A program made the position numbers and the translations under genes. DNA of 62,873 nt, filler included, from Dugesia japonica (lineage: Eukaryota): NCBI GenBank assembly GCA_001938525.1. It is 5 parts of 5 records of this genome, joined end to end, with 100 filler letters (N's around TTAATTAATTAA, not from the genome) between each part and the next. Parts side by side here need not be neighbours in the genome. Positions count along the whole stretch, not along the records: positions 1 to 20,701 come from MQRL01628071.1; 4 more parts are not named here. One strand, given 5' to 3'. Below are positions 1,541 to 58,213 of this stretch, piece by piece. The notes below the pieces were generated by a model that made no database searches, was not told where the DNA came from, and worked only from the letters and a program-made list of their open reading frames with translations. Position 1 is the stretch's first letter. Each line of letters begins with the position of its first letter.

Positions 1541-3475
1541 TGTTGGGGTGGAACACCTAGTGAATTAAACAAAACCACATAAGTTCCAGTCTGTAAAGAA
1601 GAATAGTAAGGGCATCACAAGGGCCCGTTAAGAAAGGAAACAGTTCCGATCATAAATCAGATGCTACATATAAATCTTTAAATGAGTAAAAAACTCAGAA
1701 GATTGGCCATGGGAAAATTGGGTGAATAAAAGTGATGCACACCAATCACAGGAATTAAAAAAATTACCAAAATCAATAATAAAAACAAGAAAATCATTAA
1801 TAAAATAACTATCGTAAAAAGAAAAAATATTAATTAATTCAGAAATAAATTAAACCAAAATTAACGAAAAATTCGTTTTNTACGAATAACTTTACCACCA
1901 AAAGACACAGGAGCTGGGCAGAAGAAAATTTGGGAAGGATTTGGATCGGGTCATCGGAATGTTGACACAAGAAACTAGTACCACCATCTGGAGAACCTCC
2001 ACGAGGATGTTAAGATTGGTTCAATAGCATCCTGAAATTTAAAAAAATAAAACAAAGCATTAAGCCTCACCTGATGAGTTAAAAATAACCGCCAATTGGA
2101 ATTCTAAAACTTTGAAAGATTTTTAGAAAATTGGCAGTAGAACCAATCGGAAGCAATAAATACAAATTAAAAATAACCAACGAATACGAAAGAAGTTGGG
2201 GTGCGAAGAAAAATCGTATGAAAGAACCCCTGAAATTAGCAAAAAAGGCATTCATTTTTCAACTTCAACAAATACCAACAGAATTACAAACTTTATCTTA
2301 GGAAATTCATTACAAAAGAAATTGTTTACCACAATAATAATAGCCGAAGTAAGAGTACCAGTTATCGCANATCAATTGAGTAAATCTATTATTTGGATTG
2401 TGAGTTAATTTGAAATTTTTTGAGAAAGCAGAAATTACCTATATTCCGGAAAATTGTTAATTTTCTTCACCGAAACCGTTGCAGAATCTTTTGGAAATTA
2501 TTTTATTAGTAAGCGATATGTTTATATTATAAATAAATATTATAATTTCTAAAATAGTTTCATGTATGTTTTTTAATTTATATAATGTTAATAAGATATT
2601 TATAAATGAAGTTATAAATTTTCCATTTCTATCGATACTAAGTCATGATCATTGATGAGCGACGCTCACTACTNNNNNNNNNNNNNNNNNNNNNNNNNNN
2701 NNNNNNNNNNNNNNNNNNNNNNNTCTTAGGAAATTCATTACAAAAGAAATTGTTTACCACAATAATAATAGCCGAAGTAAGAGTACCAGTTATCGCATAT
2801 CAATTGAGTAAATCTATTATTTGGATTGTGAGTTAATTTGAAATTTTTTGAGAAAGCAGAAATTACCTATATTCCGGAAAATTGTTAATTTTCTTCACCG
2901 AAACCGTTGCAGAATCTTTTGGAAATTATTTTATTAGTAAGCGATATGTTTATATTATAAATAAATATTATAATTTCTAAAATAGTTTCATGTATGTTTT
3001 TTAATTTATATAATGTTAATAAGATATTTATAAATGAAGTTATAAATTTTCCATTTCTATCGATACTAAGTCATGATCATTGATGAGCGACGCTCACTAC
3101 TAATCGGATCAATAAAATAAAGTGAGCCTAGTAAATTAATCTATACCAGAATATCATCACGCATAATTGATCATTTCTCGCACATGCACTGTACAACAAT
3201 TATTGCCGTTGATTAACACTAACATAATGATTTAGTAGTTGGTGGATGATTCATCAAAATAACTACTCAACATAGTGAGGAAATTGAATAATTTTTTGTT
3301 TGTAAAATATTTAACTTTCAGGCACATACATCGTTATTTCCTGATTAGGTGTGTATTGAACATGTCCCTACTAACACACAAACGACCTTCATGGTGCTAG
3401 GAAACAAATAGCGCCCAAATTTAATTTAAATTAAAATCTATTTATTTCTAAATACTTGTAATTTTTTAACTCCTA
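1541..3475 (+). repeat. Putative very long 5' LTR (at least ~1.5 kb after removing the gap duplication; end not defined)
   Basis: Begins TGTTGGGG, has no convincing ORFs and is homologous along its length to the inverted copy at 1-1469. Confidence 0.55.
2296..3101. repeat. ~378-bp near-exact duplication on both sides of an N gap (probable assembly artefact)
   Basis: 2296-2673 is identical, apart from one N, to 2724-3101, with 50 N between them. Confidence 0.85.
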
Positions 3476-3949
3476 NNNNNNNNNNNNNNNNNNNNNNNNN
3501 NNNNNNNNNNNNNNNNNNNNNNNNNNNNNNNNNNNNNNNNNNNNNNNNNNNNNNNNNNNNNNNNNNNNNNNNNNNNNNNNNNNNNNNNNNNNNNNNNNNN
3601 NNNNNNNNNNNNNNNNNNNNNNNNNNNNNNNNNNNNNNNNNNNNNNNNTTACTATATTTTATAGTAGTGTTATTAAAGTTATTACTACCCAGGTTTATGG
3701 CATCATTGCTGTTACTATCTACGCGTATTATCGATTAAAACTATTATGGTAGACTTTACTAAAAGTATGATGTAAAGATAGTAGTGCTGTTGCGATTATT
3801 TCCACTTCTCACCCTAACTAGTAGGTTCAGGCTCTTGAACATCACATGGGGTTAAAAGGAATTTCGTTGTTTCAATATTAATGAAGTCATGANCAACATG
3901 ACTTAATGATCATCAGCAACAAATGTGTAAATATTAACTTGGTGAGAGT

Positions 3950-4162
3950 TTGGTAATATGGATCTGTTTTAGAAATCCTATGTCTGAATTATTTCTATTG
4001 ACCCTTCAATTAATACAACGAGAGCGCGAACAATCACGTAAACGGCAATTAATAGGACATCTCATAGCCCCGTGTCTGGTTATGCATCCCGACGAAACAG
4101 ATTTAATTTGCTTCACCGAGATGATTTCGTTGCCATTGAAAACGGATATGAATGAGAAATGA
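3950..4162 (+). pseudogene. Small Arg-rich ORF, paralog A (QREREQSRKRQL...HPDETDL)
   Basis: Ungapped 49-codon homology to 5933-6079, with substitutions biased to codon position 3. Confidence 0.5.
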
Positions 4163-4823
4163 TAATGAAACTTATTTCGTTGAAATAAAATATAGGATGG
4201 CCTAAAGCTCTAATTTTTAAATTTTATTGTTTATTGATGATTATATTAACCTTTATAATTAAATAAAATCTCTATTNNNNNNNNNNNNNNNNNNNNNNNN
4301 NNNNNNNNNNNNNNNNNNNNNNNNNNNNNNNNNNNNNNNNNNNNNNNNNNNNNNNNNNNNNNNNNNNNNNNNNNNNNNNNNNNNNNNNNNNNNNNNNNNN
4401 NNNNNNNGAGAATCCAAAATTTTGGCGAGCGGCTAAATTTCGAGCAATGGAATGGGCCAGAGCGAAATCACACAACGGCGTTCCAGTATCAACCTCCGGC
4501 CTCACCCCAACTCGTGCAGGCTTTCATCACTAACTTGCTCTGAGGCGTTAGGGAACCCTCTAGTATGGAGGATGCCGAAAGCGCCGCTTCTACCACGGAC
4601 CCCACAACTAATCCGCAGTGACTCTATTGTTTTATGATTAGAATGTAGAAATAAATACGTGTCTTTGTTTAATATTATCTTGCTTCGTTTCCTTCAGGGT
4701 TTTAATAAAGAACATTTTTAATAGTGTGATAAGTATATTTTGCTGTCCTAAAATTGGGAAGGGTTTCGTGTACTTCAGTAACATCGATAATAGTATATTT
4801 AGTAAACATTTACTATTTTGTAG

Positions 4824-5259
4824 TGCATTCCTCTCTGAACAGTCCTTCAGCTCCTACCAAGAAGATAAGAGACACCAGCGAGGGCCAAGAAATAACTTGG
4901 GACCTCTATTGCCTGGCAAAGCGACGCTGAGAGGCAAAGATAGCCATCGCCAAAAGTAAGGTGAGCCGGTATAAAAAGAAATGCCTAGCATTCAAGGCAG
5001 AAGCCGAAGCNNNNNNNNNNNNNNNNNNNNNNNNNNNNNNNNNNNNNNNNNNNNNNNNNNCCTAGCATTCAAGGCAGAAGCCGAAGCTTCACATAAACAG
5101 GAAAGAGTCTGGAAGGCTCAATTAGAATCTTTCCTTGAGATTATCCAGTCCTACCACGACCGAGAGAATAAACTGGTTGAGGATATTCACAAATTGAAAG
5201 CTGCAATGCCCCTCGAACCATTAATGGTCAACAAGGGTACACAGTTTCCGAGGGTTTAA
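4824..5259 (+). pseudogene. Upstream accessory coiled-coil ORF with PSAP motif (one internal stop)
   Basis: After the acceptor-like TTTTGTAG (4823) one frame reads SLNSPSAPTKKIRD...LYCLAKRR*EAKIAIAKSKVSRYKKKCLAFKAEAEASHKQERVWKAQLESFLEIIQSYHDRENKLVEDIHKLK once the gap-flanking duplicate is collapsed. GC content is higher than in the flanks. Confidence 0.45.
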
Positions 5260-5929
5260 GATCTGCCCTTGCATAAATAAATGTTTTAATATTAAACTTT
5301 ATTTTAATTCTATTACTTTTGCTAGTTAATTGGCCTGTTTGTCGCCTAACAAATAAACTAATGTTATATCTTGTTAAGTGCCGCGAATTACGTTCCCAAA
5401 CAGCCTGAGAAGGTGTCGCCGAATAATGCGACGTCATTATATGACCGAATATTTATAATGGTTTTTAACAACTAAAATCATGGGGATAAGAATAAATAAG
5501 ATTCTAATTATAACTAACAACAGTTAATAACATTTAAATAACATTATAATAAGGATATATAATCATATATGGAAATCATAACCTCCGTATAATTATTAAA
5601 ATAATAATAAATGGGTGTCTTATTAGTGTAATAATTGATGGTTAAACATTCACTTTTAGGGATATTAAAATTCATATCGTCACCACTGAAACTACTAACT
5701 AGCATTATTAACCGAATCCTGTGGACGCAAATCTTACCAAATTTATGGGGAAAAGGAAATAGTGCTATTTGCGACTTACCCTGATACTTACCTTGACTAT
5801 TATATTGAGCACTCTCAGAAGTGAATTAATTCTTGTCATATTCAATTATAGTAAAGTCGCGAGTGTTGCTTTTACCGGTGAACAATAAAAACCTGTGGAA
5901 TAACTAATTTTTTGCAAATGGTATAATAA

Positions 5930-6080
5930 TTGTGCATCAGTTTCAGATACTCCATGTCGAATATACTCCTATCGACTATTCAATTCATTCAACGAGAGCG
6001 CGAACGATCACGTAAAAGGCAATTAATCAGGCATTCCATAGCTCCCAGTCTAATTAGGCATCCTGACGAAACGGATTTAC
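5930..6080 (+). pseudogene. Small Arg-rich ORF, paralog B (QRERERSRKRQL...HPDETDL)
   Basis: Paralog of 3959-4105; weaker homology extends upstream (about 5650-5930 vs 3660-3950). Confidence 0.5.
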
Positions 6081-6095
6081 AAAAGAGAAAAGAAA

Positions 6096-6608
6096 GTGAA
6101 CTGGAAAATGGTAACCGGAATCTTTCGTTTCCTAACAAAAACAATGGTACTCGACAGCCATTCAAAGGATATCGATAGAGTAAAACGGTTTATCCGTAAG
6201 CTGGGTCAAATAAGAGGCTCGGATAAGGAAGTCGTAATGCAACTCCAACTATTATGCAAAGAGATGAGTAAAAGTAAAAAGAAAATATCTTATTTCAATC
6301 AATTTAAAGAAAGATTTAAGAACCGAGATGATAGCAGTAGCAGCAGTGATGATAACAGAGGAGAAAGCAGTAGATTACCCAGCGCATCCAGTTATAAAAC
6401 CGCCATGGAATGTAAAGCGGAATTCAAAAGGAAACAATATATAAAAACCAGTAAAATGCAACGATTGAAAAACGCGTTGAAATTCGGAGGAAGTGAAAAT
6501 ACACCTGCACAGATGTATTACAACGCATATCCACAACATGGATATGAACCAACAATGAACCAGCCAATGATTCAGTCAATGAACCAACAACCATCACAGA
6601 TATGGTAA
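6096..6608 (+). pseudogene. ORF in the gag position (basic, Ser-rich, Gln/Pro-rich tail); no recognisable capsid or CCHC motif
   Basis: 170-aa ORF directly upstream of the protease; assigned by position only. Confidence 0.35.
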
Positions 6609-6617
6609 CAAGGCCCA

Positions 6618-7090
6618 ATGTACGGCTCCACGTATCTGGGTTCACCACAGTTACTTAACATAGCATTGCTAACGGATAGCAACGTATCACAATTACCAGT
6701 TAACGATAGGAGGACAAACGACCAAAATTTGAAGTCAACTAATAGTCAAATCACAGAGAATGACAAGTTAGAAACACAAACGGTATGTATGATGACTACC
6801 CAGAGAACAAAATTACTACAGAAAAAGATAAAAGTGGACGGAAGATGGGTAACCGGTATTATTGATACTGGAGCAAGTATGTTACTAATCCACAAAAGGA
6901 TGATAGAGGAACACCGTCTACCAATGATAAGAATTACTAAAGGAGATTTCACTACGGTATCCGGAGAAAAAAATATCTTTACTAGGTGAAGCGATATGTA
7001 TAATCGAGAATGATGGAATTTGACTACATCACAAGATACGAATAATGAATGAATTGACTTGATTGTCTACTAGGACTGGACATCATACCA
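6618..7090 (+). pseudogene. Retropepsin-type aspartic protease
   Basis: IKVDGRWVTGIIDTGAS catalytic motif and a C-terminal DCLLGLD motif near 7061-7082 (frameshifted). Confidence 0.85.
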
Positions 7091-8594
7091 ATACTATGTC
7101 CCAACGGGCTATTAAACTTAAGAAAACTATCCCTCCATAATACGACAAACAAAGGAGAACGACTGCAATTGGCGATGCAGGACTATTGCCCATTATTGAA
7201 ATTTAAAACTGGGAAAGCAAATTCGAATGCCGATTGTCTATCAAGAATCGATGGACCGGATGAAGCCAACAATCCACCTGATAATTCTGAAACATTTACG
7301 CTGCGTGATCTGCTCGAAAAGAAAGTGGGAATGGTTTATTTTATATTAGCCGAAAATCCAAATTTTGACGGGATAAAGCCAGCACAAGCGGATGATGAAG
7401 AGATAAGGATCATTACAAAATGCATTGAAAATTACAATCTCGAAAAATTGGAATGCAAACCCAAAATAAAAGAGCTTTTAAAGAAGAATCGAGGTTGTTA
7501 TCCATTATCAACCAAAGGCTGGTTGACAGCTTAAGACGGCAAAAATACTGTGTTGGTCATTCCAAAATCCAGGCGGGACAAACTTTTGCAACAATATCAC
7601 AATGGAGTATTGGAAGGACACATATCCAATAAGAAAACTGAATCGAAACTAAGACAGAAATATTACTGGTCCCACATGACTGAATCGGTTAAAGAATGGA
7701 TCACAAAATGTCAAATATGTGCCGCCAGGAGTGGTACAGAAAAACGAGTGAAAGCCCTATTAAAACCTATCACTGCAGCTAGTACCTGTAGCTCCGATGG
7801 AGATTATAGCTATGAATGTAGTTGGACCATTACCGCCTACATTGCGTGGAAATATCTATATACTAACAATAATGGATTATCTGTCGAAATTCCCGGAAGC
7901 ATTCCCAATGAAAAACCAGAAAACAACCAAAATAGCAGATATACTAGTGAGAAAACTTTTCAGCAGGTATGGCACGCCCAAGAAAATACTAACCGATCAA
8001 GGAAAAAACTTTATGAATAACATATTAGCAGAAATATCGAGTTTCCTCAAAATACACCAATTACGAACATCACTTAATCATCCACAAACGGATGGCCTAA
8101 CGGAACGATTTAATAAAACGTTGGTCAATATATTGTCCAGTTATGCATAAAAGGAACAGAATAATTGGGATAAGCATATTCAGTTGTGTTTATCCGTGTA
8201 TCGAATGCGTATCCNNNNNNNNNNNNNNNNNNNNNNNNNNNNNNNNNNNNNNNNNNNNNNNNNNNNNNNNNNNNNNNNNNNNNNNNNNNNNNNNNNNNNN
8301 NNNNNNNNNNAAGATGAAACCGATTTTGTAGCAAATTTCAAAGAAACTATGCAGAAAATATGAATACAAGCCAAAGAAAATGTGGGATTTTAGCAAGAAA
8401 GCTAGAAAGATTTGCATGATAAAACAGCAGCCCAACATGCATTCAAGAAGGGCGATATAATATTAATCAATTTGCCGAATATTTGTGTCGGTATCACGTC
8501 GAAATTAAAAGAACCATGGCAAGGGCCATATGAGGTGATTGAGGTAACCGAAACTAACCTCAAGGTTCGAAATCTATCACGAAAACCTGTGTAA
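7090..8594 (+). pseudogene. Pol remnant: RNase H C-terminus plus integrase (zinc-binding, catalytic core, GPY/F)
   Basis: RLQLAMQDY..KTGKANSNADCLSR; H-NGVLEG-H...YYW...CQIC; VVGPLP...IMDYLSKF...LTDQGKNF...HPQTDGLTERFN; WQGPYEV. Confidence 0.92.
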
Positions 8595-8604
8595 AAAGCC
8601 TGCA

Positions 8605-10345
8605 ATGACAGACGAAAATACTCAGGCTACAAATATTACGCCAGCTACAACGGAGCCTAGGCGGTCAGGTAGGCCTCGCAAATCTGAAACTATGGAATCC
8701 ACTATCTCACATAGTTACCCTTTACGACTACAACAAGCTATGATGATACTCGGTAAAGCATCAGTACTAGCATTCTCACTAGGTCAGTTGAGTCAGCGCA
8801 TTAAAGAGCTGGGTACCACAACGTTGTACTTCAAAATACCTCGAAGGACCCGTGCGCCAGTGGCAGACAGCAGTTGTATTCATCTTACACAAATGAAATG
8901 TCCTTTCTCACCAACAGTCATTGAAGCAAGTTGTCTTACATGTGTAAGGAAAATCAAAACCATTTTGAAATCGACTTTACGAGCTGTTTCCACCCAAAGA
9001 ATTTGGTTGTTACAATAGGATATCTCTAATACAAAACAATGCAGGAAAATACACGGCGAGCTATCAATTCAAGCACTGTTGTCACAAGACACGATAAATG
9101 CGTTATGCGAACGTTGTATCAGTATTTATAGTGAAACGTTGACAACGGCAATTGAAAACTTCCACCTCATATTACTGGTCTAGGATTGGTTGGTATTACG
9201 GTCACAACCAGTCGATCCTCCACCATGAAGAGGGTTGGAATGATTACTACGAAAAAGAAGTCTCAGCGAAGACGCTGAGTCTGAAGAGAACAGGGAGGGA
9301 GAATTAGTAGAAAAGAATGAAGTCCAGTAGCTGGAAACGATCTTACAACCAGCAAAGGAGGAGGAAATAATAACCGAGTTACAGAAGATAACTCCAATGG
9401 TAAAAAAGCAGCCTTGGATTATGCTGACAGGCAAAGAAAGGCAAAGAGAATAAAAGGCGAACGGGCCTTTGAGGATTATCAGATCAAGGCCGAGAAACAA
9501 AAAGTAGAAGTTGAAGAAAGTACTAAGTCACTAAATAACTCGTTACCCGCCAAAGAATTAAGGCGGTCGAGTAAAGCGTGTATACCTAAAATAATCGACA
9601 CACCGAACTCTAATTTTCTTTTTCAGTCACAATAGACCATATCGATAAATAATAACAGATCACTTACTGCACTACAAAATATTAAAACCATATCTTTTAG
9701 TTCAGATAATCAAATGCGTCGGCAACTTAAAATCGAAGTCATGAACGCCATTATGATATATCCGATCATATGTAGAGGAAACCAGATACCGGCGTCAGAA
9801 GAAAGCTACATCCATATTACACGAATAATATGCCCACTCTCAACAATACAATTAGAAGAAAGCTGTCTCCAATGTATAAAAAACTCAAATTATCTTAAAA
9901 ACCTCATTAAAAGCCATTCACAATCAGCGAACATGGTTATCTAAACGAGAAAATTAGTTCAGAAAAGATTGTGATGGATCATTAATTGAAGCACCGATCC
10001 AGGCACCTATTCGCCAAAATATCATCAAGNATCTATGTCTGCTGTGTACGGATATTTACAGAGACGAATTACTAGCAGCTACTCACGTTTTTCACCGTAC
10101 ATTGGTACAATGGAATTGGATAAGAGTCTACGAACCTTCAAATATCCAATTGCCATGGGGGATGATTGGGTTGCCCATACAAAGAGAATACGATATAAAA
10201 AATGCTGAGGAGCCAGACACAAAAATAGACAAATTAATTCCAAAAGAACCGGAATCAGACAACATCGGGAATGCTGACAAGGAATTACAAAACCTTGTGA
10301 GGATAATGGAAAAGACATTCAATAATCATTGGAATGACTTGGANN
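8605..10345 (+). pseudogene. Tandemly duplicated Cys-rich accessory domain downstream of integrase (two copies)
   Basis: Copy 1 (~8830-9230): IHLTQMKCPFS..EASCLTC..ILKSTLRAVSTQRIWL..IQA..LCERCISIY..FH. Copy 2 (~9750-10165): IHITRIICPLS..EESCLQC..ILKTSLKAIHNQRTWL..IQA..LCLLCTDIY..FH. Confidence 0.7.
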
Positions 10346-10395
10346 NNNNNNNNNNNNNNNNNNNNNNNNNNNNNNNNNNNNNNNNNNNNNNNNNN

Positions 10396-12142
10396 AATAA
10401 TAAAAAGGGAAAGGAGACACAAGAAAATCCACTATCACAGAGAAACACGGGCAGTGTTATATATATATTCGAAGTAATAGTTAAAATGATCTTGTCACTA
10501 TGGGCACTAATCAACACAAGCTGTGATTATGACATTTTAGTGTGGATAATTCTGAAACTCGTCAGAAATCTAGGGAGGGGTTACTCAGCAATAATGATTA
10601 TATACGGAATTATAGGATTAATTTTATTATGATTATCAACGTCAGTCTTAGCAACTCAACAAATGCAGATAATACCTCAGAACGAAATACCTAGTGGACA
10701 AATCATACTAACTACCGTGCTAATAACTTTAAGAAGGATAAGAAGCTAGGAGTGCTGGGCGAATGAAGCTTTACTAACAGAGCATAAAATAGTGGTCGAG
10801 GGTCAAAAACCGCAATAAGGACTATGAGTACTGACGGACGAAACAGGGAAGTAAACATTCAAGAATCATTCGGTCACGAAATAGTAGTCATAAAACCCAC
10901 TATCAAAGGGCATGACGAGACAAAGTTATTATTAGTTTGGAAAGGTTGGATGGCAGAAATATGGTACCGAGGCGATATAACCGTAGAAGGTCAAGAAATG
11001 CAGTTTAACATGAAACATTGGTGGATGGAAACATCACAAGAATTCTAAGGAAAATATCATAAACCTACCAGAACATACGATCAGAAAATGTGGTTTGAAA
11101 TGAGTCGTTTGCTTAACATTCTAATCTACTATATAGCCGATGAAAGTCTCCAAAAAGGGTGGAAAATTATAAGAAAAGGTGGTGAAAGTTTAAAAATCTG
11201 CCAACATAATGAGTACACCTACCATATCGATTTTCGAAAAATATGATAAAGGAAACAACAAACAAAGAAAAAAAAGGATATTAATGGAGCAAAGAAGGAT
11301 AGCCATGTACCGAGGAACATGGTTAAACGTTGTGACTCAGTATATTTTTGGTAAATGGGGACCCCNNNNNNNNNNNNNNNNNNNNNNNNNNNNNNNNNNN
11401 NNNNNNNNNNNNNNNNNNNNNNNNNNNNNNNNNNNNNNNNNNNNNNNNNNNNNNNNNNNNNNNNNNNNNNNNNNNNNNNNNNNNNNNNNNNNNNNNNNNN
11501 NNNNNACGGGAATGAAGAAGTAACAAGCTATAAAAAATCCTTACAAGAATCCGGAGCAAACATGGGGAATTTCAGCTCAGAAATGTGGGAAATAGAATTC
11601 ACCACTGTCATAAACTGGGATAAAATAATAAGGCTAGGTACCCCAAAACCAATCACCAAAGAGATCACCATGACATCTACTACAGAACCCCCAACCACAA
11701 CAAAATGAAGAAATCAACTACAATAATTAACGAAAAAAAAGATTCAAAGAAAACAAATTTCTTAAATAGACTAATGTTAAACTTACACAATTTCAAATCA
11801 AGAGAGAACCAGGTGGCACCATGGGATATGCCCACCATACAAAAAATATCAGTCACAACTCCTCAAAACACAAAAACCGGAACAGATTATACGATAATAA
11901 TCGGAAGTGTCGTCGCTGCAATAACAATAATAGGTGTTGCATACGTATGTCTATGTGGAAGGGCAAAAGCTAAGAAAAAGAAACATACTCGAAGTAGAAG
12001 GGAACGATATTTACCGGTAGCCCCACCAAATTACGAATGGATGCAACCAGAGATAATATCGAACGAACTACCCATGTATCTGCCTAGACCCTATCATGCA
12101 CCGGGGGTAATGACTTGCTTAATAGACATTAGTTCTGTGTAA
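10396..12142 (+). pseudogene. Env-like type I membrane protein (disrupted)
   Basis: Hydrophobic signal-like stretch MIIYGIIGLILL*LSTSVLA (~10594-10653), Trp-rich ectodomain, Thr/Pro-rich stalk (TSTTEPPTTT), TM helix YTIIIGSVVAAITIIGVAYVCLC (11888-11956), basic stop-transfer KAKKKKH and cytoplasmic PPNY. Confidence 0.6.
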
Positions 12143-12233
12143 ATAGTGTAAAGTGTACTAAACTAATAATGATAAACAACTGTATATACATGTAAAAATA
12201 ACTATAGTATTGATTAATTCTTCACATTCAAAA

Positions 12234-12859
12234 ATGAATTATACAAAAAAAGAAAATGAAAATAAATACTCAAGCATGAGTGAAGATGAAGAAACGGATT
12301 CACAAATAGACTCAACAAGTCCAAGTGTGACAAGTCATATAAACAGCAGTCCTGCAAGAAGTCTTACACTAATAAATGACAATCAAAATATTACACAAGT
12401 GACGATACATGAAATATGGAGAAATCATAATGAAGAAATGAAAGAATTATGGAATAGTGTCAAAACACAAACTTTATGGACCCAACAGAGATTGGAAGAA
12501 CTAGAACACAGTCAGATTCAACTATTATAAATCCTAATAAATTCAAAACCCCAAGTATACTGCGAACTAGAATTTAAGAATAAAGTCTTGCAATTACAGA
12601 ATAAAAACCTTTATGCAAAAATCCTTGTGTCGACAACAAATATCGGAAAACAGACGAATGTTGTATACGACGACAGAAAAACAAAATTACGCAATGGACC
12701 TAATAGCCAGGCAACACGATTTAATCTCAAATCAGGAGGGAGAATCAAAATATGTCAGAGGGCTAGTAACCTCACAAATATTAGAGATGGAGACACTCAA
12801 AACCCGGAGTGCTCTTACTCAAGTCAGTTTTGTATAAACTGAAAAGGGAGATACAAAAG
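12234..12859 (+). pseudogene. Ser/acidic-rich then coiled-coil ORF; probable 5' exon of the IAP gene
   Basis: Overlapping ORFs 12210-12530, 12588-12842 and 12613-12837 are linked by a stop and frameshifts. They end at AG|GTATAA (donor at 12860). Confidence 0.45.
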
Positions 12860-12860
12860 G

Positions 12861-12899
<39 letters not shown>

Positions 12900-13016
12900 C
12901 TATATGGGTATTTATATTAAACTAAAAAAACAAATAAAAATAATATATACTTCTAAAAATATTACATAATGTACTATGTTGCTATATAATCAAGAATAAT
13001 TGTTTATATATTGTAG
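12860..13016 (+). other. Putative spliceosomal intron within the retroelement cargo (contains a (TA)n run)
   Basis: AG|GTATAA ... TTGTAG|, extremely AT-rich. Splicing joins LYKLKREIQK to IMEFNMEL in frame. Confidence 0.55.
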
Positions 13017-14203
13017 ATAATGGAATTTAATATGGAATTGACGCTGGAAGATGTTAGATCGATAATGGGCGATTCAGATATCAATCTACACATTATGAGC
13101 CAAGGTCGGGAGGAAATAAAGCAAGTTCCAATAGTCAAAAACATTCCACATTATCGTAGCAATTTCAGTTCACCAGAAAATTTAAACGAAGAACAGTGAA
13201 TTACAGCGTGATGAGAGTTTTTGATGAGAAATACAGAAACGAAAAAATGAGAGCCCTCACGCTACTCAAGTTACCTAATTATCTTCATAGGCTAATCAAT
13301 GATATGGCTAAAACAGGATTCTATTTCTTCGGAACCAGAGATGAACCAGACCGAGTAAAATGTATATATTGTCAAGGAAATTTGTATAAATGGAGGAGGA
13401 ATGATAACCCAAAAAGAGATCACAAGAGATCATTTCCCCCATGCCCATTCTTACTAAATTTGGATGTAAATAATCAGCCAAAAATAATAACCCAAGGTAA
13501 ACAACCAGAAATCGAAAAAATAACTACAGAACACAAAAAGTTGTATTATAAAGTAATAAAAAATTTAGCTGAAGTAACACTACCCGATGATTTGGAATGG
13601 AACATCGAAGCTAGGGAAGAAACATTTAGCGAAACACCAAAGTTATTGGAAAAAGCCATGGAAGGGTTATATATCACCGAACAGACAAACACCAAAGTCA
13701 TAAAATGCACAACATGCAAAAGAGAAACACCAATACTGAAAAACGTGGAGAAACTGCCNAGGAATATATTCCACCAACCAAAGTGTTCAAGATTAAGCCA
13801 AAGTTAGAAAGAAGAGATGTCCGTAACCTCATATAGAATACAATGGAATATGTCAAAAAACAGAATAGAAATGGCCGTCGAATAGCAAGCAGACAGATTA
13901 GCTAAAATACTCGAACTGAATAAAGAAACTAGTATCGAACTAATCGCAAAGACAGTCGCGGAAAAAGGAGTCGAAATGGTAACACCTTTAGAATTGTACC
14001 AACAATCTCTCAATACAATCACTAGACAAGTAAGTTATGAACAGGAATGGGTCCTAATAGATAGTGATTGCATCATTTGCCTCGATGAATCAATCCAAGT
14101 TGTATTTCTTCCATACGGACATTTTAAAATTTAATAAAATTGCACACTTATTTTAAATGAATGCCCAATGTGTAGAAAATTGATTAAGCGCAGAAAATTT
14201 TAA
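13017..14203 (+). pseudogene. Inhibitor of apoptosis (IAP/BIRC-type): BIR, degenerate BIR, linker, C-terminal RING
   Basis: BIR: RALT..MAKTGFYF..DRVKCIYC..LYKW..DNPKRDHKRSFPPCPF. Second BIR-like: AREETF..AMEGLY..KCTTC..HQPKC. RING at 14069-14203: CIICLDESIQVVFLPYGH..C..CPMCRKLI. AATAAA follows the stop. Frameshifts and stops are present. Confidence 0.9.
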
Positions 14204-14302
14204 CAATAAAATGAAAATAAAATATGTCAATAATGTCTATATCTATATATATAAATGTCAATATCATATTATACGTGCTTAATCACTCCCTCTAATTTAG
14301 AA

Positions 14303-14830
14303 ATGAGCAACGAAAACTTAATAACTCACCTTCGAAACAAAGTGCACACCCTCCAAATCCAAAACCAATCTCTCATCATAGTTCAAGAAGCACTAAAATG
14401 GAAATTAGACGCAAAAGAAAATGGTCTCCTAAATCTCCAACTCCAAAATTAAATCAGCGGCTTGAAACTCAAATCGTAAAAGTCCGACACGAACTCACAA
14501 TTAGAGAGCGATCTTGTATCGGTCACAAAAGAATAATGAAAAGAACTCTCGACGAGAACAGAGTTAAACGCCATCAGACAAGCACGTAATTGGAAAAGCA
14601 AATTCGAAGTCGAACCGAAGAGAAAAAAGCTGGAAAATCAGCTGTTAATCGAACAAGAAAACACCCAGATTCTGAGAATAGAGTTGTTCAATACTCAATT
14701 CGAGAAAACTCGCTTGGCAACAGAAAATCATATAATATAGAATTCAGTGTTCATGAATTGCACGTAACTTCCATTTTATTTTAGTGTCTACGAAACAATA
14801 ACCCTAACAATTATATTCGAAAAGATGCAG
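14303..14830 (+). pseudogene. Coiled-coil accessory ORF (frameshifted)
   Basis: MSNENLITHLRNKVHTLQIQNQSL...LNQRLETQIVKVRHEL...KLENQLLIEQENTQILRIEL; heptad-like and preceded by acceptor-like TAATTTAG. Confidence 0.4.
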
Positions 14831-15294
14831 AGCGAAAAGTATTAAGTGATCGGACGACTTAGGGAACTGGAAATGATTCAAAAAACCGTGTCAGTAAGAA
14901 TCGGAAGCTGACATTCTTACATCAAGACATCCAGTTGTATGTTTAATTTCTTCATTAATTTTGAGAATTGATTGTAAATTCAAAGTTGATTTAAACAAAA
15001 ATGAGTCAATATTAAAGATGGGATGTCTAAAAAAGTGACTTATAAAGATGCCAATGATGATGAATACTAAATAAAATAGTAATTAAGAATTAACTTAATT
15101 AAAAGAAATACGCCTAACAGCTTGCCTTTGACATTAATATATTAATTTTATATTGCTGAACAAATAAAAGTAATGCGTAACCTACAACTACGAAAGCAAT
15201 TTTAATAAATTTAGTATTCTGTAATTAAAGAACATAAACATGGTAAAATTGTATTGTCAGTTTAATTTTAAAAATTGAAACAGATAACATTAAA

Positions 15295-18200
15295 TCATTG
15301 TGAAAAATATTTATCGATATGATTTTCAATATCTTCTTTAGTAAATTGAATGTATTTATCACGTTTAGTAGTAAATTGAATGTGCAAAAATGCATCCCGA
15401 AAATCGCAATACTTTGGAATGAAAGTAGATTTTAAGTCACAAATTATTTGTTTCTTTAAGTCCTTATCTGGTAGAGCATAAAGACTATGGCTTTTGGAAA
15501 GAATTAGAAAACTTTGATTAAATCGCTAAAATATAATCAGTGAAAAATTAAATTAAATAATGATTACTGTCCAAATATCCTTTATTTGCGTTTTCAAACT
15601 ATTATCAATCTATAAGAATACATTTAGATTATATTTAATTAATAATTTACTTTATTCCCATTATTTGTAAGAGAAGCATATAATTTTTGTTCGGGAATAT
15701 TTGAAGATTTTATAAATCTAAAAAATTGCAATTTACAAAACGCTAAAAAATGTTACTTACGTTGAAAGATAGATCAATTTTTTTTGGTTAATACAATTAA
15801 GAAGGCTTTTGGACATGTTGTCATTGGACAATTGAGAAGTGTTGTAAAATTCTGACCTATTAAAAAATTAACCTATATTAAATATTTATAAACCTAAGTA
15901 ATATTTTTTTGGTTTTGCGACTATTGTAGTTACTAAAAATTACAAAAATTCAGGGATTATCATGTAAATGATACAAAAGTATCAATTAATAATCTGTGTA
16001 TCAGATATGACACAGGTAAAGGATTAAAAAAACAGTAAATGAAAATTTCATTAATGAAATCTCAAATGCGATCAATGGTTAAGTCCAACAATTATTCTCT
16101 CAATAATTGTAATTATAAATGAAAATTATCAATTAATGTTAGATACAATAAAGATAGTGTATTTAGTGAAGACATGTGGTTTTGCAAATTCCCAAAGAGA
16201 CAACTGCTATTTATCTCAGTAGTTAAATCAATAATCTCCAATAATTCGATGCACTAATAAAATGAAATAAAGTTAAAAAACTTAAAATTATTCAAATAAT
16301 TCTGTGAAACCATGGATGCTGAACACACCGAACCTTTACTGCGTACAGAAGTCAGGTGGTTTTTTAAAGGTACAAAAAGTATCAAATTATCTTACCCTCC
16401 AAGTAGCAGAGGATGTGGATTTAACAATTCCTGTTGAATACGTTCATTTTCAAACGATGCAAATGGTATGTGAGACAAAAGCATTTAAATATCAAATGTA
16501 TTAAATTTTCAATTTTAAATATAAATTATTCCATTAATTACTCGAAAAATTGACTAATAAATTTTACCCTGATGTAGTTTTGTAAATATAATGAATGTTG
16601 TTTATTTGAAATATTATTCGGGGAATATCATCATTATAAATCATCGACATGTTTGTTATGTTTGTTATAAGTCCATCAATAACTTTATCTTAAATAAATA
16701 ATTACACACTTTCAATATAAAAGTAAAAAAATAAACTAATATATTCTCCAAAGGTATTTTTCGAATTAGTTTCGGAAATTAAGTTTCCAGAATTTCTAGA
16801 CAGAATTGAACGCGATTTTGTAACTGATTTCGAAGGAACATGAACAATTTTGTCAGCAATATTAATATTAGATAAATTAAGCTCAACAATTTTTCCGTGA
16901 CTTAACAAAGTTTCTAAAAATCTTAGGGCCTAAAAAGACATTAACATCACATATAAAAGCGAAAATAACATTTGTGGTTAATTCGTGAACAGTTGCATCT
17001 GATGGAACACATGTTCCATCTAATGCTGTAATTTTTTCTGTTTTAATATATTCAACATATACTTCCAGGCATTGCATAATTTGTTGCGTTAATTTATTAA
17101 GCATCAAGTAAATAGATTGACGAGTAGTTTCCATGGTGACCTATTAAATTCAAAATCTAATCTTATGAAAAAATATATACGTATAATATTTCTTGTAAAT
17201 CACTTTTAATTTCCATAAATCTTTCAAGAACTATAATTAAATTTATAACATATTGATACTGATGCTTCGCTTGAGCTCTTATCATCATTTTCAATAATTC
17301 CTTTTAATAAAATATATATTACAATATGTTTGAAATTATTTTACGTTGCCATCATTTAGGAAATCATTTATACTTCCTTTAATTATAGCATCCATAGCAC
17401 CACATTTATCTTTAAATTCTGGAGTAAGGTTTAATTTTTCTAACCAACATTTTTCGTTCTAAAAACTTAAATTTTTAACACGTAATTTTAATAATCACCT
17501 GCATTAACTTAACTAAAGCGACTAATCGTATAGTAAATAAATTGGATTCTCGCTCCTCAAAATCTTCTTTAACTTCACTTCCTTGGCGTTTGTGACTAAC
17601 TGTTTAAATAATCATACTACAAAAGCTAAAAAATTACTTTCTTTAACAACTTGAATGTTTCGTTTATTAATCCTAAAAAATATTACTTATAATCGACTAA
17701 TTATAATTGAAAAAATTTAACATATTTAAAAGTAATATACGTTTTAGAAAACCAGAATGTTATACCAATTTAAAATTATAACTACCAATAATTATTTTCA
17801 AATATCTAAAGTTCAGCACAAAGAAATGTTTGTATTGATTTTTCTCATTATTTCAAACTTTAAAAATCCCCTATTGTAATTATTTGATGTTTATTAATTC
17901 CGAAAATAAAAAATCCGATTACCATTATTATACTTATTTAAAAATTATAAAACATTCCTAAATATTACCGACATAATAAATTAATTTAGAACGTTTTAAT
18001 GTCAGTATTTTATTTTGAAATTGAAATTATTATTCACATATTTTAAATTAAAAGCTTACGGTTTTCGTTTGTTAGATTTCAGTGTTGAAGTTTTATTACG
18101 CTAAAATTATATTAAAGCAACATGATACAAAGAGGTTTACCAGAGAAAGTGTAGCTTGTTCTAAATGATTGTAATTTTTACACCACTCTTTAAATCTATA

Positions 18201-19125
18201 AAAATGTCATTGAAATCATTTTTTTATTTTTCTATTAACCTTTCCATGGTTGATCTCAGTGCTTCACGCCTACAAGTACAATATCGAACAACGCAATTAA
18301 TGGTTTTATCTTCTAAGAGCCATTTTGATATTATTTTTAAATCTGAAATATGACTTTCAGCAACATTTTCAAAAATTTCAGTTGTTACTGTATACGAACT
18401 AGATATACTTTCATTATCGTTTTGACTCTCTAAATCAAATCGTTTATAACTTTTTAATACAATAAAGAACCTTTATAAAAGCATAAATTGAAAATATTTT
18501 CAGGTCTAATAATTGGAAATGCTTGATTTAATATACTTTCAAATTCCTTTTCTATTGAAGATTTTCCTGTGCAATAAAGAGCAGTCTACATATAAATTGA
18601 ATTACAAAAATTTATAAATTTACTAGATGAGCTAATTCAACATTATTAGGATCATTATCCTTAAAAAATTCCATTGCATTTCTAATTTTGTCCATAGCTG
18701 CTAAATAATGATCTAAGTTCCCACTAGGACTATAAGCATTTAAAATATATTGCATTAGTAAAATGCAAACCATTTATTAATAATAGTTTCTACTTCTAAA
18801 CCAGTTCTATTAAAGTTTTGAGTTTTCATAAGGGCACTGCGACATGTTTCCATATCTTAAAGATATTAACATTAAGAAATGCTTATTTTATACTTTTAAG
18901 AGCATTCTGAAATTGATCTATAGTTCGACTGAGTGGTTCCAACTTAACTTGTAAATATTGCGAAGTTTCAATAATTCCATTTAGTTTTTCGTCTGTTTCT
19001 TCTAATAAAGTTTGATATTTTCCGGATAGATTTTCTGTTTGTTTTATAAAGTTTTTTAACTGAACATTCAAAAGCACGAATAAATTAAAAATTTATAATT
19101 ATCATACTTGAGTGTCTGCAATCAT
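15295..19125 (-). CDS. EXOC7: Exocyst complex component 7 (Exo70), multi-exon host gene
   Basis: Exons read MIADTQ|LKNFIKQ..., PSGNLDHYLAAMDKIRNAMEFFKDNDP, VPSDATVHELTTNV, YNDDIPRIIFQINNIHYI and terminal RFNQSF..YALPDKDLK..FTTKRDKYIQFTKEDIENHIDKYFSQ*, all matching Exo70 signature regions. Introns are GT-AG; not every exon was traced. Confidence 0.88.
16280..16500 (+). mobile_element. hAT (Buster/Charlie-like) transposase relic inside an Exo70 intron
   Basis: CETMDAEHTEPLLRTEVRWFFKG resembles the conserved C..M..EH..LL.HTEVRWLS.G motif. Confidence 0.7.
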
Positions 19126-20801: not shown

Positions 20802-21540
20802 TGCGATAATGAGAAGATGTATTGTGATAATGAGAACAGGTATTGTGATAATGAGGAGAGCTATTGTGATAATGAATAGAGCTATTGTGATAATGAGAAG
20901 AGGTATTGTGATAATGAGGAGAGGTATTGCAATAATGACGAGAGGTATTGTGATAATGAGGAGAGGTATTGTGATAATGAGAAGAGGTATCGTGATAATG
21001 ACGAGAGGTATTGTGATGAGAAGAAGTATTGTGATAATGAGGAGAGGTATTGTGATAATGAGAACAGGTATAGTGATAAAGAGAACAGGTATTGTGATAA
21101 TGAGGAGAGGTATTGTGATAATGAGGAGAGGTATTGTGATAATGAATAGAGCTATTGTGATGAGAAGAGGTATTGTGATAATGAGAAGAGGTATTGTGAT
21201 AATGAGGAGAGGTATTGTGATAATGAGGAGAGGTATTGTGATAATGAATAGAGGTATTGTGATAATGAGAACAGGTATTGTGTTAATGAGGAGAGGTATT
21301 ACGATAATGAGGAGAGGTATTGTGATTATGAGAACAGGTATTGTGATAATGAGAACAGGTATTGTGATAATGAGAGGTATTATTATAATGAGGAGAGGTA
21401 TTGTGATAATGAGGAGAGGTATTGTGATAATGAATAGAGGTATTGTGATAATGAATAGAGGTATTGTGATAATGAGGAGAGGTATTGTGATAATGAATGG
21501 AGGTATTGTGACAATGAGGAGAGGTATTGTGATAATAAAA
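20802..21540. repeat. 21-bp minisatellite (ATTGTGATAATGAGGAGAGGT)n, about 35 units
   Basis: Directly visible; it produces the MRRGIVI / IITIPLL repeat ORFs. Confidence 0.95.
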
Positions 21541-28482: not shown

Positions 28483-30620
28483 TAACACAAAATTTCAAAT
28501 CTTCAAATCTTCCAAAAAACTATGTTTTTAAAAGCTGAATATTTAAACAAACATTTTAAATATTTTTACAAATTCTTGAAATATTTTAAAACATTTTCTT
28601 TAAAATTTAAATTGCCATTTTCAATTTTTAATACTTACACCATCCTCGATTAAAATAATTTTTTAAGCTCCTTTCTAGCCATTTTCCCTTTGTATTTCGT
28701 ATACGATATCTTCTCTCATGTATCTTTCATTGTCTTGTGTTCTAGTTTAATCAATACTTCGTCTCCCACTTGAAATTGTTTTTTGTAGGAGTTTCTTCCA
28801 TTAACTCTTTGTCATCTTTTTGGCTGTCAAACCATTATTCTCTGTGAATTCTCTTACTGAATACTAATTCTGCTGGTGATATCCCAAATGTCTTTTGCCT
28901 TCTCGCATTCATCGTGTATTCAATCTCCGGTATCCCGTTACTCCAATCCTTTATTCTATCTTCATCTGCGGCTGCGTTAATAGTCTCTAATTGTGCGGAA
29001 TTGTCTCTCTATAATTCCGTTTGTATTGTGATGGTACTTGAAAAGTGTATTTCCATATTCATCGATTCCATCAAATTCTTGAAGTTTTTCGATTCAAATG
29101 TCTTACCGCTATCTACGCGAACTTCTATTGGCGCTCCAAATCTCAAGATCCATTTTTCCATTATCACTTTTTTAATCGTCTCATCATCTTGCTTGCTGAT
29201 CGCAGTTAGGCTTACGTATCGACTGTATTGGTCTATTATTCCACATAAATATCTTTGTCTGTTCAATGTCTCTAGAAAAGGCTTACATATGTCCGTATAT
29301 ATCTTTTCAAATGGACAATTTGCTCTTAATTTTACTGTTGGCTTTTTTGTTGCCACCGTATTAACTTTTTTCTTTTAGCACGCTTCACACTATCTTATCA
29401 CTTCTGTGATTGTCTTCTTCAGTTCTTCCATTTCGCAGTTGCTGATTATATAGCTGATAATTTTCTCTGTCCCTGCATGTATTAAAAATGTATGTATCTC
29501 TTTGATCATTGATATTCTTTTCTCTTTTGGAATACAAATTTTCCCATCACTTGTTTTCACTTCATGCTGTTACTTCCACATAATTCTTCTAGGGCTCTTG
29601 ATTTCTTTGAATAATTCTTGATGAATCTCCTGTCATAATTTCATATTCCAAGAAAGCTTCTCAGGTTCTTTACGCATTTGGGTTTCTCAAAATTTTTGAT
29701 AGCTTTGATTTTCATTGGATCTGTTCAAATTCCTTCTTTATCTATTATGTGGCCAAGAAATTTTACTTCTTTGCGTAATAGATGACATTTTTCTGGATTC
29801 ACTCGCAACCCTGCCGTTTGGATCCGCTCTAATACCTTACCCAGAGTTATATAATGTTCTTTTAGTTCTTCTGAGAATATCATTATGTCATCCATATACA
29901 TCATTACTCATCTAGACCGTCCAATAATTTTGTCATTAGTTCTAGGAATGTTCCTGGGGCTGCTGCTATGCCGAATGGCATTCTTGTGAAGCAAAATTGA
30001 CCATTTTTGTCGAAAAGGTTGTTTTCTCTTCTGACGCTTTTTCTAACGGTACCTGGTAATACGCGTTTCCCAAGTCTATGGAACTGAAATATTTGGCTCC
30101 ATACAAATTGTCTAACATTTATTCTACGTTTGGCATCAGGAAGGCCTGTCGTTCCGTAACTGTATTTAGTTTTCTGAAGTCCAAGCAAAGTCTCACATCC
30201 CTTCTTTCTTTCTTCCAGACGCATATCAGTGGTGTGTTTCACTGCGAATTACATTTTCTTATAATAGCGTCCACGAAATATTTTATGGCTGTATCTATTT
30301 TTTCTTCTAGATTTATGAGTTGTCTCCAAGGCTTCGTATTTATTGAGTTACCCTTTGTCACTATCTTGTGTTCCGCTAACGTTGTGCATCCGACACCCTA
30401 GTTATCTGCCATGAATACTCCTCAATGTTTTACTATTACTTTTTCCGGTTTTTCGTCTCGTTTTGTCATCAAAATTTTCAAAGCTCTCTATTCTCTTTCA
30501 GCATCTTCGATTTTACGACCAAACTTTGAATCTATGTTGCAGATTCACTGTTCATCTTCATAATCTTTTTTTTCTTTCGTTAAACGGTATCCAAACTGGC
30601 GTTGCATACTTATTCCTCCG
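28483..30620 (-). mobile_element. Degenerate, internally deleted Ty3/Gypsy element with the start of a 3' LTR at 28639
   Basis: RMPFGIAAAPGTF, PFEKIYTDIC, GIIDQYSRY, RVDSGKTF; purine tract GAGGATGG then TGTAAG on the minus strand. Confidence 0.85.
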
Positions 30621-32799: not shown

Positions 32800-35700
32800 C
32801 GTTTTGAGTGTTTCCGAGGAAGTAATGAATTTTGAAATAGTAACTCAAATAAAAGGGAGCAGGAAAGGCTGGTCACCTGTCTAATTGACGAAGAACTATT
32901 GACTAAATTTGCTGAAACATTTGGAAAAATAGAAGGTTTCTAAGGACGATTAAGACGGGTATTTAGTAAAGAAAGAGATGTCATTCCAGACATGAAAGAC
33001 ATGATATATATCAGAAGAAGAGACGAGGGTATCAATAATTATATCAAGAAAGTAGAAGATTTTGTGGAAAAACTCTTTGCAAATAAGGAATTTACAAAGA
33101 AAAAGGTAAGAACTAGGTTGCTGGTACAATCTGCAGGAAATAAAAGGGTAGAAGATGAAGCCATTTTACGTAAGATACAAAAAGTTGAAGAAATCAAAGA
33201 GACTTTGAAACCTTTAGATAAAGTGAGAAATAATGAAGACACAGATAATATTATGAGTTTCATAGCAGCTGTGAAAAGAGATAGAAAAAATGTAGAGGTC
33301 CTGAGACGAGACGACCCGAAATACAAAATTTTGAAACGCGACAAAGTGTAATACCTAAATTTGGAAACGTACAACTAGATAGACATAGAAACGGGAAAAT
33401 GACGTTGGTGTGTTGAATTGCAATAAAGTCGTTCACATGAGATAGGAATGCCAGTTTAATTCAAGGATCAAGTGTTGGATATGTTATCGAGTTGGTCATA
33501 CTAGCAAAAGATGTCCAAAGAAAAAACCTATTTAGAGGTTTCAATGTGTACAGGGAGGCCATATCATTAGAGAATGTTAAGAAAGAAACAATAAAAGAAC
33601 AGTTATGGAAGATATAAAACAAGAAGAAATGGCAATTATTATCTTGAAAAAGAGACAAGAAGGTTAAATAATTATAACGAGAGAGGTTATAATAGATATG
33701 AATAGTTGAATGCAACAGATGAGATGATAAACCGGGGAGACGAAGAGGAAACCGGAAGTGTTGAAGGGAATATCAGTGAGGTCTCCTATAGAAGACAAGT
33801 TAGTCGAAACCATATACTAAAAGTTAGTTCTATCGTATTTCCTCGGGAAATTGAGCGCTGGGAGAATGCAGAGAAGATTGGAGAGAAAATGCTCAGGTTT
33901 TTATGTAGATAGTCATTCAAGGAGAATGCAGACATAGGGACAGTAATGATGGTAGAAGCAAATTGCAAAGTGAAAATTGAATATAAAAAATTTCATGGCA
34001 GACCCAGTGTGGATATACAAGTTGATGAGAAACGGATGAACTGTTTATTAGATAGAATAAATGTACCTAGCGCGGAAGGTTGGATGAAATTGGAGAGTAA
34101 ACAATTGTAGGAATGCGAGATGAAATTGCGGTGAGCAAATAACAGCATACTTGAAACAATGGAGAAAGTAAGATTGAATGTACATGTTGGCAAAAAGAAA
34201 GAAGAAATTGTTTTCATGGTGAGAAAACAAGTGGTTCCAAAAATGATTGGAGGTAAAAAATTTCTGAATATTTTAAGATTTCGCTTAGAGCAAAGTAAAG
34301 AAGAGAGACGGAAGTTCGAAAGGAAAGAGTATATTTGTAATTTGGAGGCGAAGTTTAGAAAAAAAATTGATCTGGGTGAACGTTGGGACAAGGCAAAAAG
34401 TGCCATTGATTGTAGAGATGACAAGCGGTTGATGGAAAAAAATATATTAAATAGAGAGGTTTTTAAGGCGAATAAATTGGATGTGGGCAAGACACATTTA
34501 ATTAAAGCTACAATCAATACAAAAGGGAGTTCTATTAATATAAAGCCATATCGACAACCGATAAATTTGGAGGATAAAATAGATGAAGCAATTAGAAATC
34601 TTTTCAAAAACGATATCATTAGGAGATGTAATTCGCCATGGAATACTACCATGGTGTGCGCGTGGAAAAAAGACAAAAACGATATTAGGTTATGTTTGGA
34701 CTTTAGAAGATTGAAGGAAATTACAGAGAGACAGGCACTTCCTATGCTAAATGTGGAAGAAATGTTGGACACATTGAATGGGACAATTTATTTTACTTCG
34801 ATTGACCTTGGAAATGCCTATTATCAGGGGGAGTTTGATAAACAGTCGCAGGGAAAAATCGCATTTTCCACAAAGCAAGGATAATACTGCTTCAAGAGAA
34901 TTCCGTTTGAAATAGCTGCAGATCCAGGAACATTTCAGGAGATGATTAATGAATTAATCAAGATAATTTGTGGAGCAATGGTATATTTGGATGATATTTT
35001 GATTTTCTCTAAATTAAAAGAAGAGCATTATCAGATTATTGGTCAATTGTTGGATAGGATTTAAGCAGCAGACTTGAGGGTGAATCCAGAAAAATGTACA
35101 TTTATGAAGGAGGAAATTAAATTTTTTGGTCATATAATCAGCAAGAAGGAAATTCAAACAGACCCAATAAAAGTAGAGGTCATTAGATCATTTGGAGAAC
35201 CTAAGTGCGTACATAAAATGCGCATTTTTTAAGGAATATGTAATTATTATAGAAAATTCATTAAGGACTATTTGACTAAGGCGAGGAAGCTTGAATAACT
35301 ATGTAATGGACCTACTAATACAAAATTAGTATAGTCATCTGAACTGACAGAGATTTTCAAAGGATTGAAGACGGTAATTGCGTATAGATCCCATAAATTG
35401 ACGTCTCATGAATTAGGATACTGCACAACTAGGAAAGAATTGTTAGCAGTATATTATTTTTGCTTACATTTTAAACACTACTTGTACGTTAGACGTTTCA
35501 CATTGAGAACAGATCATAAAGCGATTACTTTTATGTTAAAAACGAAGAAACCAGTGACGAGTGAATTTCAAACATGGATCAATTTTCTTAGAAGCTTAGA
35601 TTTTAACCTAGAATACAGAAAAGGGATATTATATAGAAACGCGGATGGTTTGCGCAGACTAGTGTGTGATAGATTTACACAATGTCAAACGGAGCACGAG

Positions 35701-57820: not shown

Positions 57821-58201
57821 TGAAAGGTAGTTTTTAAAAGCAGATTTAATTTTTCGTATTTTGAGGCGGAATTTTTGAAATCAGTTTGTTAGTTGTTTGT
57901 TTGTTTTTTAAATAAGAAAATAAGATAAAATATATATAATGTATTTTTAAATTTGAAATTTAATAAATTGTGGATAAATTAAAATAAGATAAAATTTACA
58001 AAATTTATTTTTAAAATTTGACATTATATAAATTTTAAAATGTTTTACAAATACTGATATTTGATGTTTTCCATTTAGAATATAAAATTTTAAATTTGTT
58101 TGAAAAAAAATTTATATGTATAATTTTTGTTTTAATAAATCTTGTAATGAATTCGAGTTCTGATATTAATGATCCGATAAGTATTCCGAACTCATCTAAC
58201 A
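57821..58201 (+). repeat. 5' LTR (TG...CA)
   Basis: Matches 62332-62490 and ends TAACA immediately before the PBS. Confidence 0.85.
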
Positions 58202-58213
58202 TGGTAGCAGCGG
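58202..58213 (+). promoter_or_regulatory. Primer binding site, initiator tRNA-Met type
   Basis: TGGTAGCAGCGG directly after the LTR's CA; the complement of the animal tRNAiMet 3' end begins TGGTAGCAGAGG. Confidence 0.75.

Follow-up and report, generated by a model that had tools for sequence, protein, structure and literature searches.

An intron-free BIR–BIR–RING pseudogene with a degenerate second BIR behind a decayed Ty3/gypsy integrase in Dugesia japonica

How does an intron-free inhibitor of apoptosis (IAP) gene come to lie behind a retroelement integrase, and what has become of it there? The window considered here, meaning the whole stretch of DNA analysed, comprises 62,873 nt of the Dugesia japonica assembly GCA_001938525.1 in five joined parts, of which positions 1–20,701 correspond to MQRL01628071.1. 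Its DNA is AT-rich and animal-like, with introns of 41–43 nt, and assembly gaps are frequent, with 1923 N in the window; a 378-base near-identical duplication over an assembly gap at 2296–3101 is likely a scaffolding artefact. Contig and RNA depths were mapped at 85% likeness from three DNA runs and one RNA run, about a quarter of which was read, and summed contig depth is not to be equated with copy number. We consider it probable that a large Ty3/gypsy retroelement carried the intron-free IAP as an accessory gene in its 3′ portion, and that the active ancestor would have used it to block host cell death.

Domains and lesions of the IAP gene

The gene and its parts are as follows.

13020..14203, + strand: IAP pseudogene, intron-free, with BIR, degenerate BIR and RING (Pfam, profile tests, alignment)
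13226..13453, + strand: BIR1, canonical (63.9 bits on the BIR profile; Pfam E 4.8e-18)
13607..13786, + strand: BIR2, degenerate, Cx2C-x18-H-x3-C (shuffle tests; spacing identical in 5/5 family sequences)
14063..14191, + strand: RING of the IAP type, containing two stops and missing two ligand positions (Pfam PF13920; alignment)
14205..14221, + strand: two AATAAA hexamers 3′ of the stop (motif positions 14205 and 14216)

For the Pfam search, the frame at 13160–14203 (+) was read with X at stop codons. BIR1 matches PF00653 (residues 46–98, E 4.8e-18, 65.9 bits) and presents its zinc ligands as Cx2C-x16-H-x6-C at 13361–13444, the spacing of IAP BIR domains; its best solved relatives, found by phmmer against the PDB, are chains of NAIP, cIAP, XIAP, and DIAP1. 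The C-terminal RING is of the C3HC4 type expected for an IAP (PF13920, residues 302–344, E 2.1e-8, 34.2 bits versus a cut-off of 27) and is degraded in the window copy, where two of the eight ligand positions are gone. A preliminary description of this DNA had proposed a canonical BIR with Cx2C..H..C ligands, a second shortened BIR, and an IAP-type RING that contains stops and is followed by AATAAA. All three are borne out, the second BIR as a degenerate domain: of the domains for which it had envisaged Pfam searches, BIR1 and the RING were matched and BIR2 was not, and the BIR–BIR–RING layout that it named holds in domain order, with a non-canonical BIR2.

The IAP ATG lies at 13020 in a frame that closes at 13197–13199, and the BIR frame opens at 13160; the frame break precedes BIR1. 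Stops interrupt the gene at 13805, 13883, 14132, and 14135, ahead of the terminal stop at 14201 and the hexamers. AATAAA occurs 15 times in the A-rich DNA of 11500–15300, and because it is so common in this region its position after the IAP says little by itself. From BIR1 to the RING the sequence forms a single frame that can be aligned end to end with relatives of 384–403 aa and requires no intron, in agreement with the earlier claim of an uninterrupted BIR-to-RING stretch. Introns were also considered as the cause of the stops and were rejected, since GT..AG pairs occur at chance level and the relatives align straight across these codons.

RNA depth is 0 over 13222–14023, and the bins next to it reach about 0.1 (one RNA run, about a quarter of it read, 85% likeness). 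With one frame break, four stops, two lost RING ligands, and no RNA, the window copy of the IAP is dead. Other contigs differ from it near the frame break and at the damaged RING codon, and the lesions therefore look private to this locus. Third codon positions make up two of the 10 listed IAP sites that differ in other contigs (40 of 1220 rows), a low share that would fit an unselected relic.

The degenerate second BIR and its family

BIR2 has no Pfam match, even as an isolated piece, and none by phmmer against the PDB. Scored on a BIR profile for which 429 BIR segments were taken from the search hits, it reaches 12.2 bits, a value attained by 0 of 1000 shuffles (maximum 8.3), and a profile of the family's BIR2 aligned with the BIR profile gave a probability of 81% (E 1.2e-5, score 27.9; maximum of 100 column shuffles 15.9). 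The ligand pattern Cx2C-x18-H-x3-C is found in 5/5 family sequences versus 6/155 other IAP hits. Judged by these profile comparisons, BIR2 is a genuine but degenerate BIR. It is not a second canonical BIR of the DIAP1/baculovirus type, as there is no Pfam match and the ligand spacing is altered. Two structure predictions had mean pLDDT values of 33.4 and 33.7 and were unusable; we infer the BIR2 fold from the profile similarity. Four candidate zinc ligands are kept with changed spacing, which makes a changed binding role likely. The conserved degenerate BIR2 may be what is new at this locus; a re-spaced second BIR was not met in the literature, but those searches were not aimed at this feature and we make no claim of its absence.

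The family itself came to light through a full HMMER search. A word-indexed homolog search with read-through yielded no significant match among 605 candidates, and the HMMER search returned 4770 hits at E 0.001, from the best 150 of which the family was recovered. One protein among these 150, P0249, matches in one stretch over its whole length and is the only one to match the middle region when this is searched alone (E 0.002). Three further collinear relatives, P0271, P0291, and P0292, were found after it. All four are whole proteins on ENA assembly contigs of 3.5–16 kb; they share the BIR2 spacing exactly and, unlike the window copy, are intact. Their identity to the window IAP is 26–30% overall, 33–36% in BIR1, 28–33% in BIR2, 16–20% in the second linker, and 41–46% in the RING, which is the best-conserved part of the family.

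A FastTree phylogeny on BIR1 and RING (139 of 159 sequences, 132 columns; a detected RING and a full BIR were required, which excluded P0292 among others, and P0271 was also left out) places the window IAP with P0249 and P0291 in a clade with support of 0.91, apart from the named IAPs. The branches are long, and the common middle region provides independent support for this grouping. Ten near neighbours in the tree were looked up; the informatively named ones are IAPs of echinoderms, hemichordates, and amphioxus, with no named flatworm protein among the ten, and they single out no donor. IMG/VR yielded no relative in 4/4 scans, an Atlas search returned generic IAP clusters only, and a JGI metagenome scan gave six weak loci, of which the one examined, L005, is a long unrelated RING-containing ORF.

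P0249 and P0291, the two distinct relatives with a BIR1, are without the Trp and the acidic residues retained by the window copy after the second cysteine; this Trp is also present in the aligned BIRs of NAIP and cIAP1. We take these positions to line the peptide-binding groove. To judge from the aligned residues, the family may bind caspases or antagonists differently and yet keep its RING.

Linkage of the IAP to the Ty3/gypsy element

The surroundings of the IAP contain the following features.

3938..4162, + strand: micro-ORF encoding an HPDETD motif, within the LTR-like repeats of ~3900–6077 (translation; 79% DNA repeat with 5933–6079)
5936..6077, + strand: second copy of the micro-ORF, seemingly truncated by a junction near 6078 (paralogous to 3938–4162)
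6828..6971, + strand: retroelement aspartyl protease (PF13650, E 1.1e-5 / 5e-5, Pfam)
7133..7249, + strand: RNase H end remnant (tblastn, gypsy-type proteins)
7559..8590, + strand: Ty3/gypsy integrase with H2C2, core, and C-terminal part, disrupted by stops and one frame change (PF17921, E 1.8e-17; PF00665, E 1.2e-12)
10456..12142, + strand: disrupted coding sequence of predicted membrane protein(s) (hydropathy maxima: 10456, 10591, and 11894; PPxY at 12023)
12234..12842, + strand: ORF A, ~200 codons, one internal stop, acidic N-terminus (translation)
14303..14740, + strand: ORF D, broken, coiled-coil-like by eye (translation; no Pfam match)
~15227..18472, − strand: Exo70-like host gene, expressed, with very short introns, facing the element tail to tail (Exo70_C, RNA)

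Protease, RNase H end, and integrase stand in Ty3/gypsy order. tblastn of 10 gypsy-type proteins against 3600–15200 recovered the RNase H end and the integrase but no reverse transcriptase (RT), and we read the missing RT as a deletion. The integrase matches gypsy integrases with a best identity of 59% (named hits among the 120 listed) and contains four stops over 7782–8585 in most alignments. The repetitive region at ~3900–6077, in which contig depth is very high at 4801–5201, is LTR-like and may represent an LTR. A junction near 6078 is probable, other contigs carrying different sequence before this position (loose ends in X2). A search for paired LTRs revealed no copy of 3650–6100 within 12000–15400 and, by self-comparison, no long flanking direct repeat.

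The IAP had been described as lying downstream of a retroelement integrase, and this is correct: the Ty3/gypsy integrase precedes it on the same strand, with about 4.4 kb of other genes between them, all in the same orientation. In the predicted membrane protein, two hydrophobic segments precede a C-terminal transmembrane helix, and the tail bears a PPxY motif; it matches no Pfam family and is possibly a second surface protein. ORF A has a weak coiled-coil match only and no family. More broadly, 8548–12142 holds several broken ORFs without a Pfam family, the last being this membrane protein, which also has a Thr-rich stalk. The element-like DNA spans ~11 kb and ends at ~14830–14900, where composition switches (near 14900) and depth is at flank level (from 14826). 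A few hundred bases beyond it, the neighbour previously called an intron-rich Exo70 gene is indeed spliced (joints of 41–43 nt at 15525–15761; RNA depth 25–27), whereas its Exo70_C match at 16886–17140 (E 7e-4) falls below the Pfam cut-off; the Exo70_C part and the spliced part presumably form one gene. Inside this gene, 16051–16119 is a hugely abundant short repeat (summed depth ~400,000 in the bin) with a copy at 52818–52896.

Several properties tie the IAP to the element. Its third-position GC is 0.33, compared with 0.34–0.38 in three pol stretches and 0.17–0.22 in two host exons, and its T content is 0.23 versus 0.32–0.34. A Markov score trained on 6078–12142 is positive in 11/11 windows of 12150–14899 and negative in 3/3 beyond. 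Decay is alike, with four stops in ~800 bases of the integrase and four in 1040 bases of the IAP, and one frame change in each. Contigs bridge both of the assembly gaps that lie between the C-terminal end of the integrase and the IAP (10344–10395 in X2 and X5; 11366–11505 in 3/3 DNA runs). Summed contig depth, which is not a copy count, amounts to 1266/397/404 over the BIR1 bin and 1706/1072/521 over the RING and the start of ORF D, against 16–29 in the flanks, and thus indicates that related DNA is repeated. Strand, composition, pol-like decay, lack of introns, and multi-copy relatives make capture by a retroelement the best reading.

Depth over 10415–11216 is flank-like in two of the three DNA runs (22–23 and 15–18), so multi-copy continuity from pol to the IAP is unsupported at 85% likeness. 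No contig piece among those listed spans pol to IAP, and a second locus with both was not found in the contigs of the three DNA runs. A contig in 3/3 DNA runs joins 14223 back to 12239 with 14 letters between, which shows that an ORF A–IAP unit also exists elsewhere, in tandem or permuted. Composition cannot tell one mobile element from another. Since linkage to pol was not seen in other copies, a separately mobile cassette is possible. The 12.2–14.8 kb block of ORF A, IAP, and ORF D could be a mobile module of its own, for example a Polinton-like or viral piece behind a gypsy remnant, for which the dip in depth at 10415–11216, its renewed rise from 12019, and the 14223-to-12239 joint would speak. 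We regard this as unlikely: a terminal inverted repeat was looked for around the block and not found, the Pfam matches of the scanned frames include no Polinton core gene, no relative turned up in the IMG/VR scans, and the membrane-protein ORF and ORF A lie ~90 bases apart on the same strand.

A second alternative is that a host IAP mRNA was copied into the element by chance and was never cargo, as in bivalves; in the hard clam, 51 of 159 IAP genes are intron-free retrocopies (PMC7831173). These resemble the window gene in being intron-free and mostly untranscribed, and an AATAAA does follow the IAP stop. The bivalve retrocopies are, however, scattered and mostly single-BIR, and are not described there as cargo in a gene row behind an integrase. 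Moreover, the codon-position composition of the window gene is element-like and unlike that of host exons, no poly(A) tract lies 3′ of it, no close expressed parent RNA was found at 85% likeness in the one RNA run, and the odd BIR2 is common to intact distant relatives. A chance processed copy is therefore quite improbable.

Continued use of the copy as a two-BIR protein lacking the RING, read from the in-frame ATG near 13211 to the stop at 13805, is very improbable. BIR1 and BIR2 are stop-free, with 4/4 stops after codon 215 of 347, but stops would fall in this way by chance with a probability of ~0.02 (0.055 when the adjacent pair is treated as a single event), RNA depth over most of the gene is 0 in the run used, and the share of third-position differences (two of 10 listed, as above) is that of unselected decay. 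A mis-assembled single IAP ortholog of the host, conceivable in so gappy an assembly, is hardly credible in view of multi-copy depth, absent RNA, lack of introns beside an intron-rich host gene, and element-like composition.

Known systems and proposed role

The nearest precedent for a captured, element-borne IAP is Burro1/GYPSM1 of Schmidtea mediterranea, a giant Ty3/gypsy element with BIR among its motifs, decaying fragments of which type occur in D. japonica (PMC6431247). Burro1 is highly abundant and active (PMC8532177), and its B-IAP is a BIR–RING IAP that protects planarian stem cells (Lee et al. 2026, Dev Cell, as cited in PMC13465017). The concept of a retroelement-borne IAP is thus already published. 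Like Burro1, the window element is of the gypsy type and has accessory ORFs with BIR and RING, a BIR being among the accessory domains reported for Burro (PMC6431247), and the proposed benefit against caspase-mediated death is the same. In contrast to B-IAP, which according to the second-hand description has one BIR and a RING, the window IAP has an extra degenerate BIR, and in contrast to the abundant and active Burro1 the window copy is broken and silent.

Further differences concern the element as a whole. Burro elements exceed 30 kb, compared with ~11 kb here, and their giant ORF1 carries MATH, BCL2, and env before the protease, and dUTPase, plus ankyrin repeats (PMC6431247); Pfam matched none of MATH, BCL2, ankyrin, env, or dUTPase in the + frames of 3650–7551 and 8600–12201 or the − frames of 8600–14901. 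Loss of ORF1 domains from the window copy is possible, as the region before the protease looks cut at 6078. Because this copy showed neither the Burro length nor paired LTRs nor the domains of the giant ORF1, we call the element Burro-like rather than Burro1. Flatworm GAG-ENV-POL elements have also been described (PMC13524379), but these have an env and none was seen in the window element. PMC13238120 and bioRxiv 10.64898/2025.12.11.693146 add nothing on the window IAP.

The window IAP shares domain order, a canonical BIR1, and a C-terminal C3HC4 RING with DIAP1 and baculovirus IAPs; it differs from them in BIR2, which has x18-H-x3 spacing and lies below Pfam detection, and in its position in the tree, apart from named IAPs. 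BIR–BIR–RING is the layout of Drosophila DIAP1 and baculovirus IAPs. In IAPs, the BIRs bind caspases or IAP antagonists and the RING ubiquitinates bound partners.

A mechanism is proposed in which the element gained the IAP without introns via its RNA stage and retained it long enough for the gene to take on element codon bias. The IAP would be transcribed as a separate small gene from the AT-rich region upstream, with a poly(A) signal of its own. BIR1 would bind caspases or IAP antagonists, the RING would ubiquitinate the bound partners through ubiquitin-ligase activity, and BIR2 might still bind zinc and have an altered role. The host cell could thereby survive the stress of element expression, to the benefit of the active ancestor. 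This anti-apoptotic role is suggested by the domains and by analogy with the published Burro1 case. The window copy has lost internal sequence, is truncated at the 3′ end, and was silent in the tested library. The preliminary description's reading, a retro-captured gene that keeps element-expressing cells alive, is partly supported: capture by a retroelement is the best reading of the gene's origin, whereas the copy at hand is a silent pseudogene that protects nothing, and the idea had already been published.

If the IAP is cargo, it adds a further retroelement with a cell-death blocker, a kind of cargo that the Burro1 work ties to stem-cell survival and regeneration; with the concept in print and the copy dead, the gain is modest. 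The conserved degenerate BIR2 offers a simple sequence marker for asking whether one IAP capture or several feed these elements. A more far-reaching and doubtful suggestion is that element-borne IAPs include a second, old line separate from B-IAP and recognizable by the re-spaced BIR2, which selection would have kept across sequences of only 26–30% identity; the gene would move as a module from one retroelement family to another and possibly into DNA transposons or viruses.

Elsewhere in the window, decayed gypsy-like pol remnants are present at 29000–30400, 33000–36500, 42500–44400, and 58000–61500; they are 65–70% mutually alike and only distantly like the IAP-bearing element. At 20805–21536 a 21-base unit is repeated 35 times in tandem; the array has a strong GC skew and is open in several frames.
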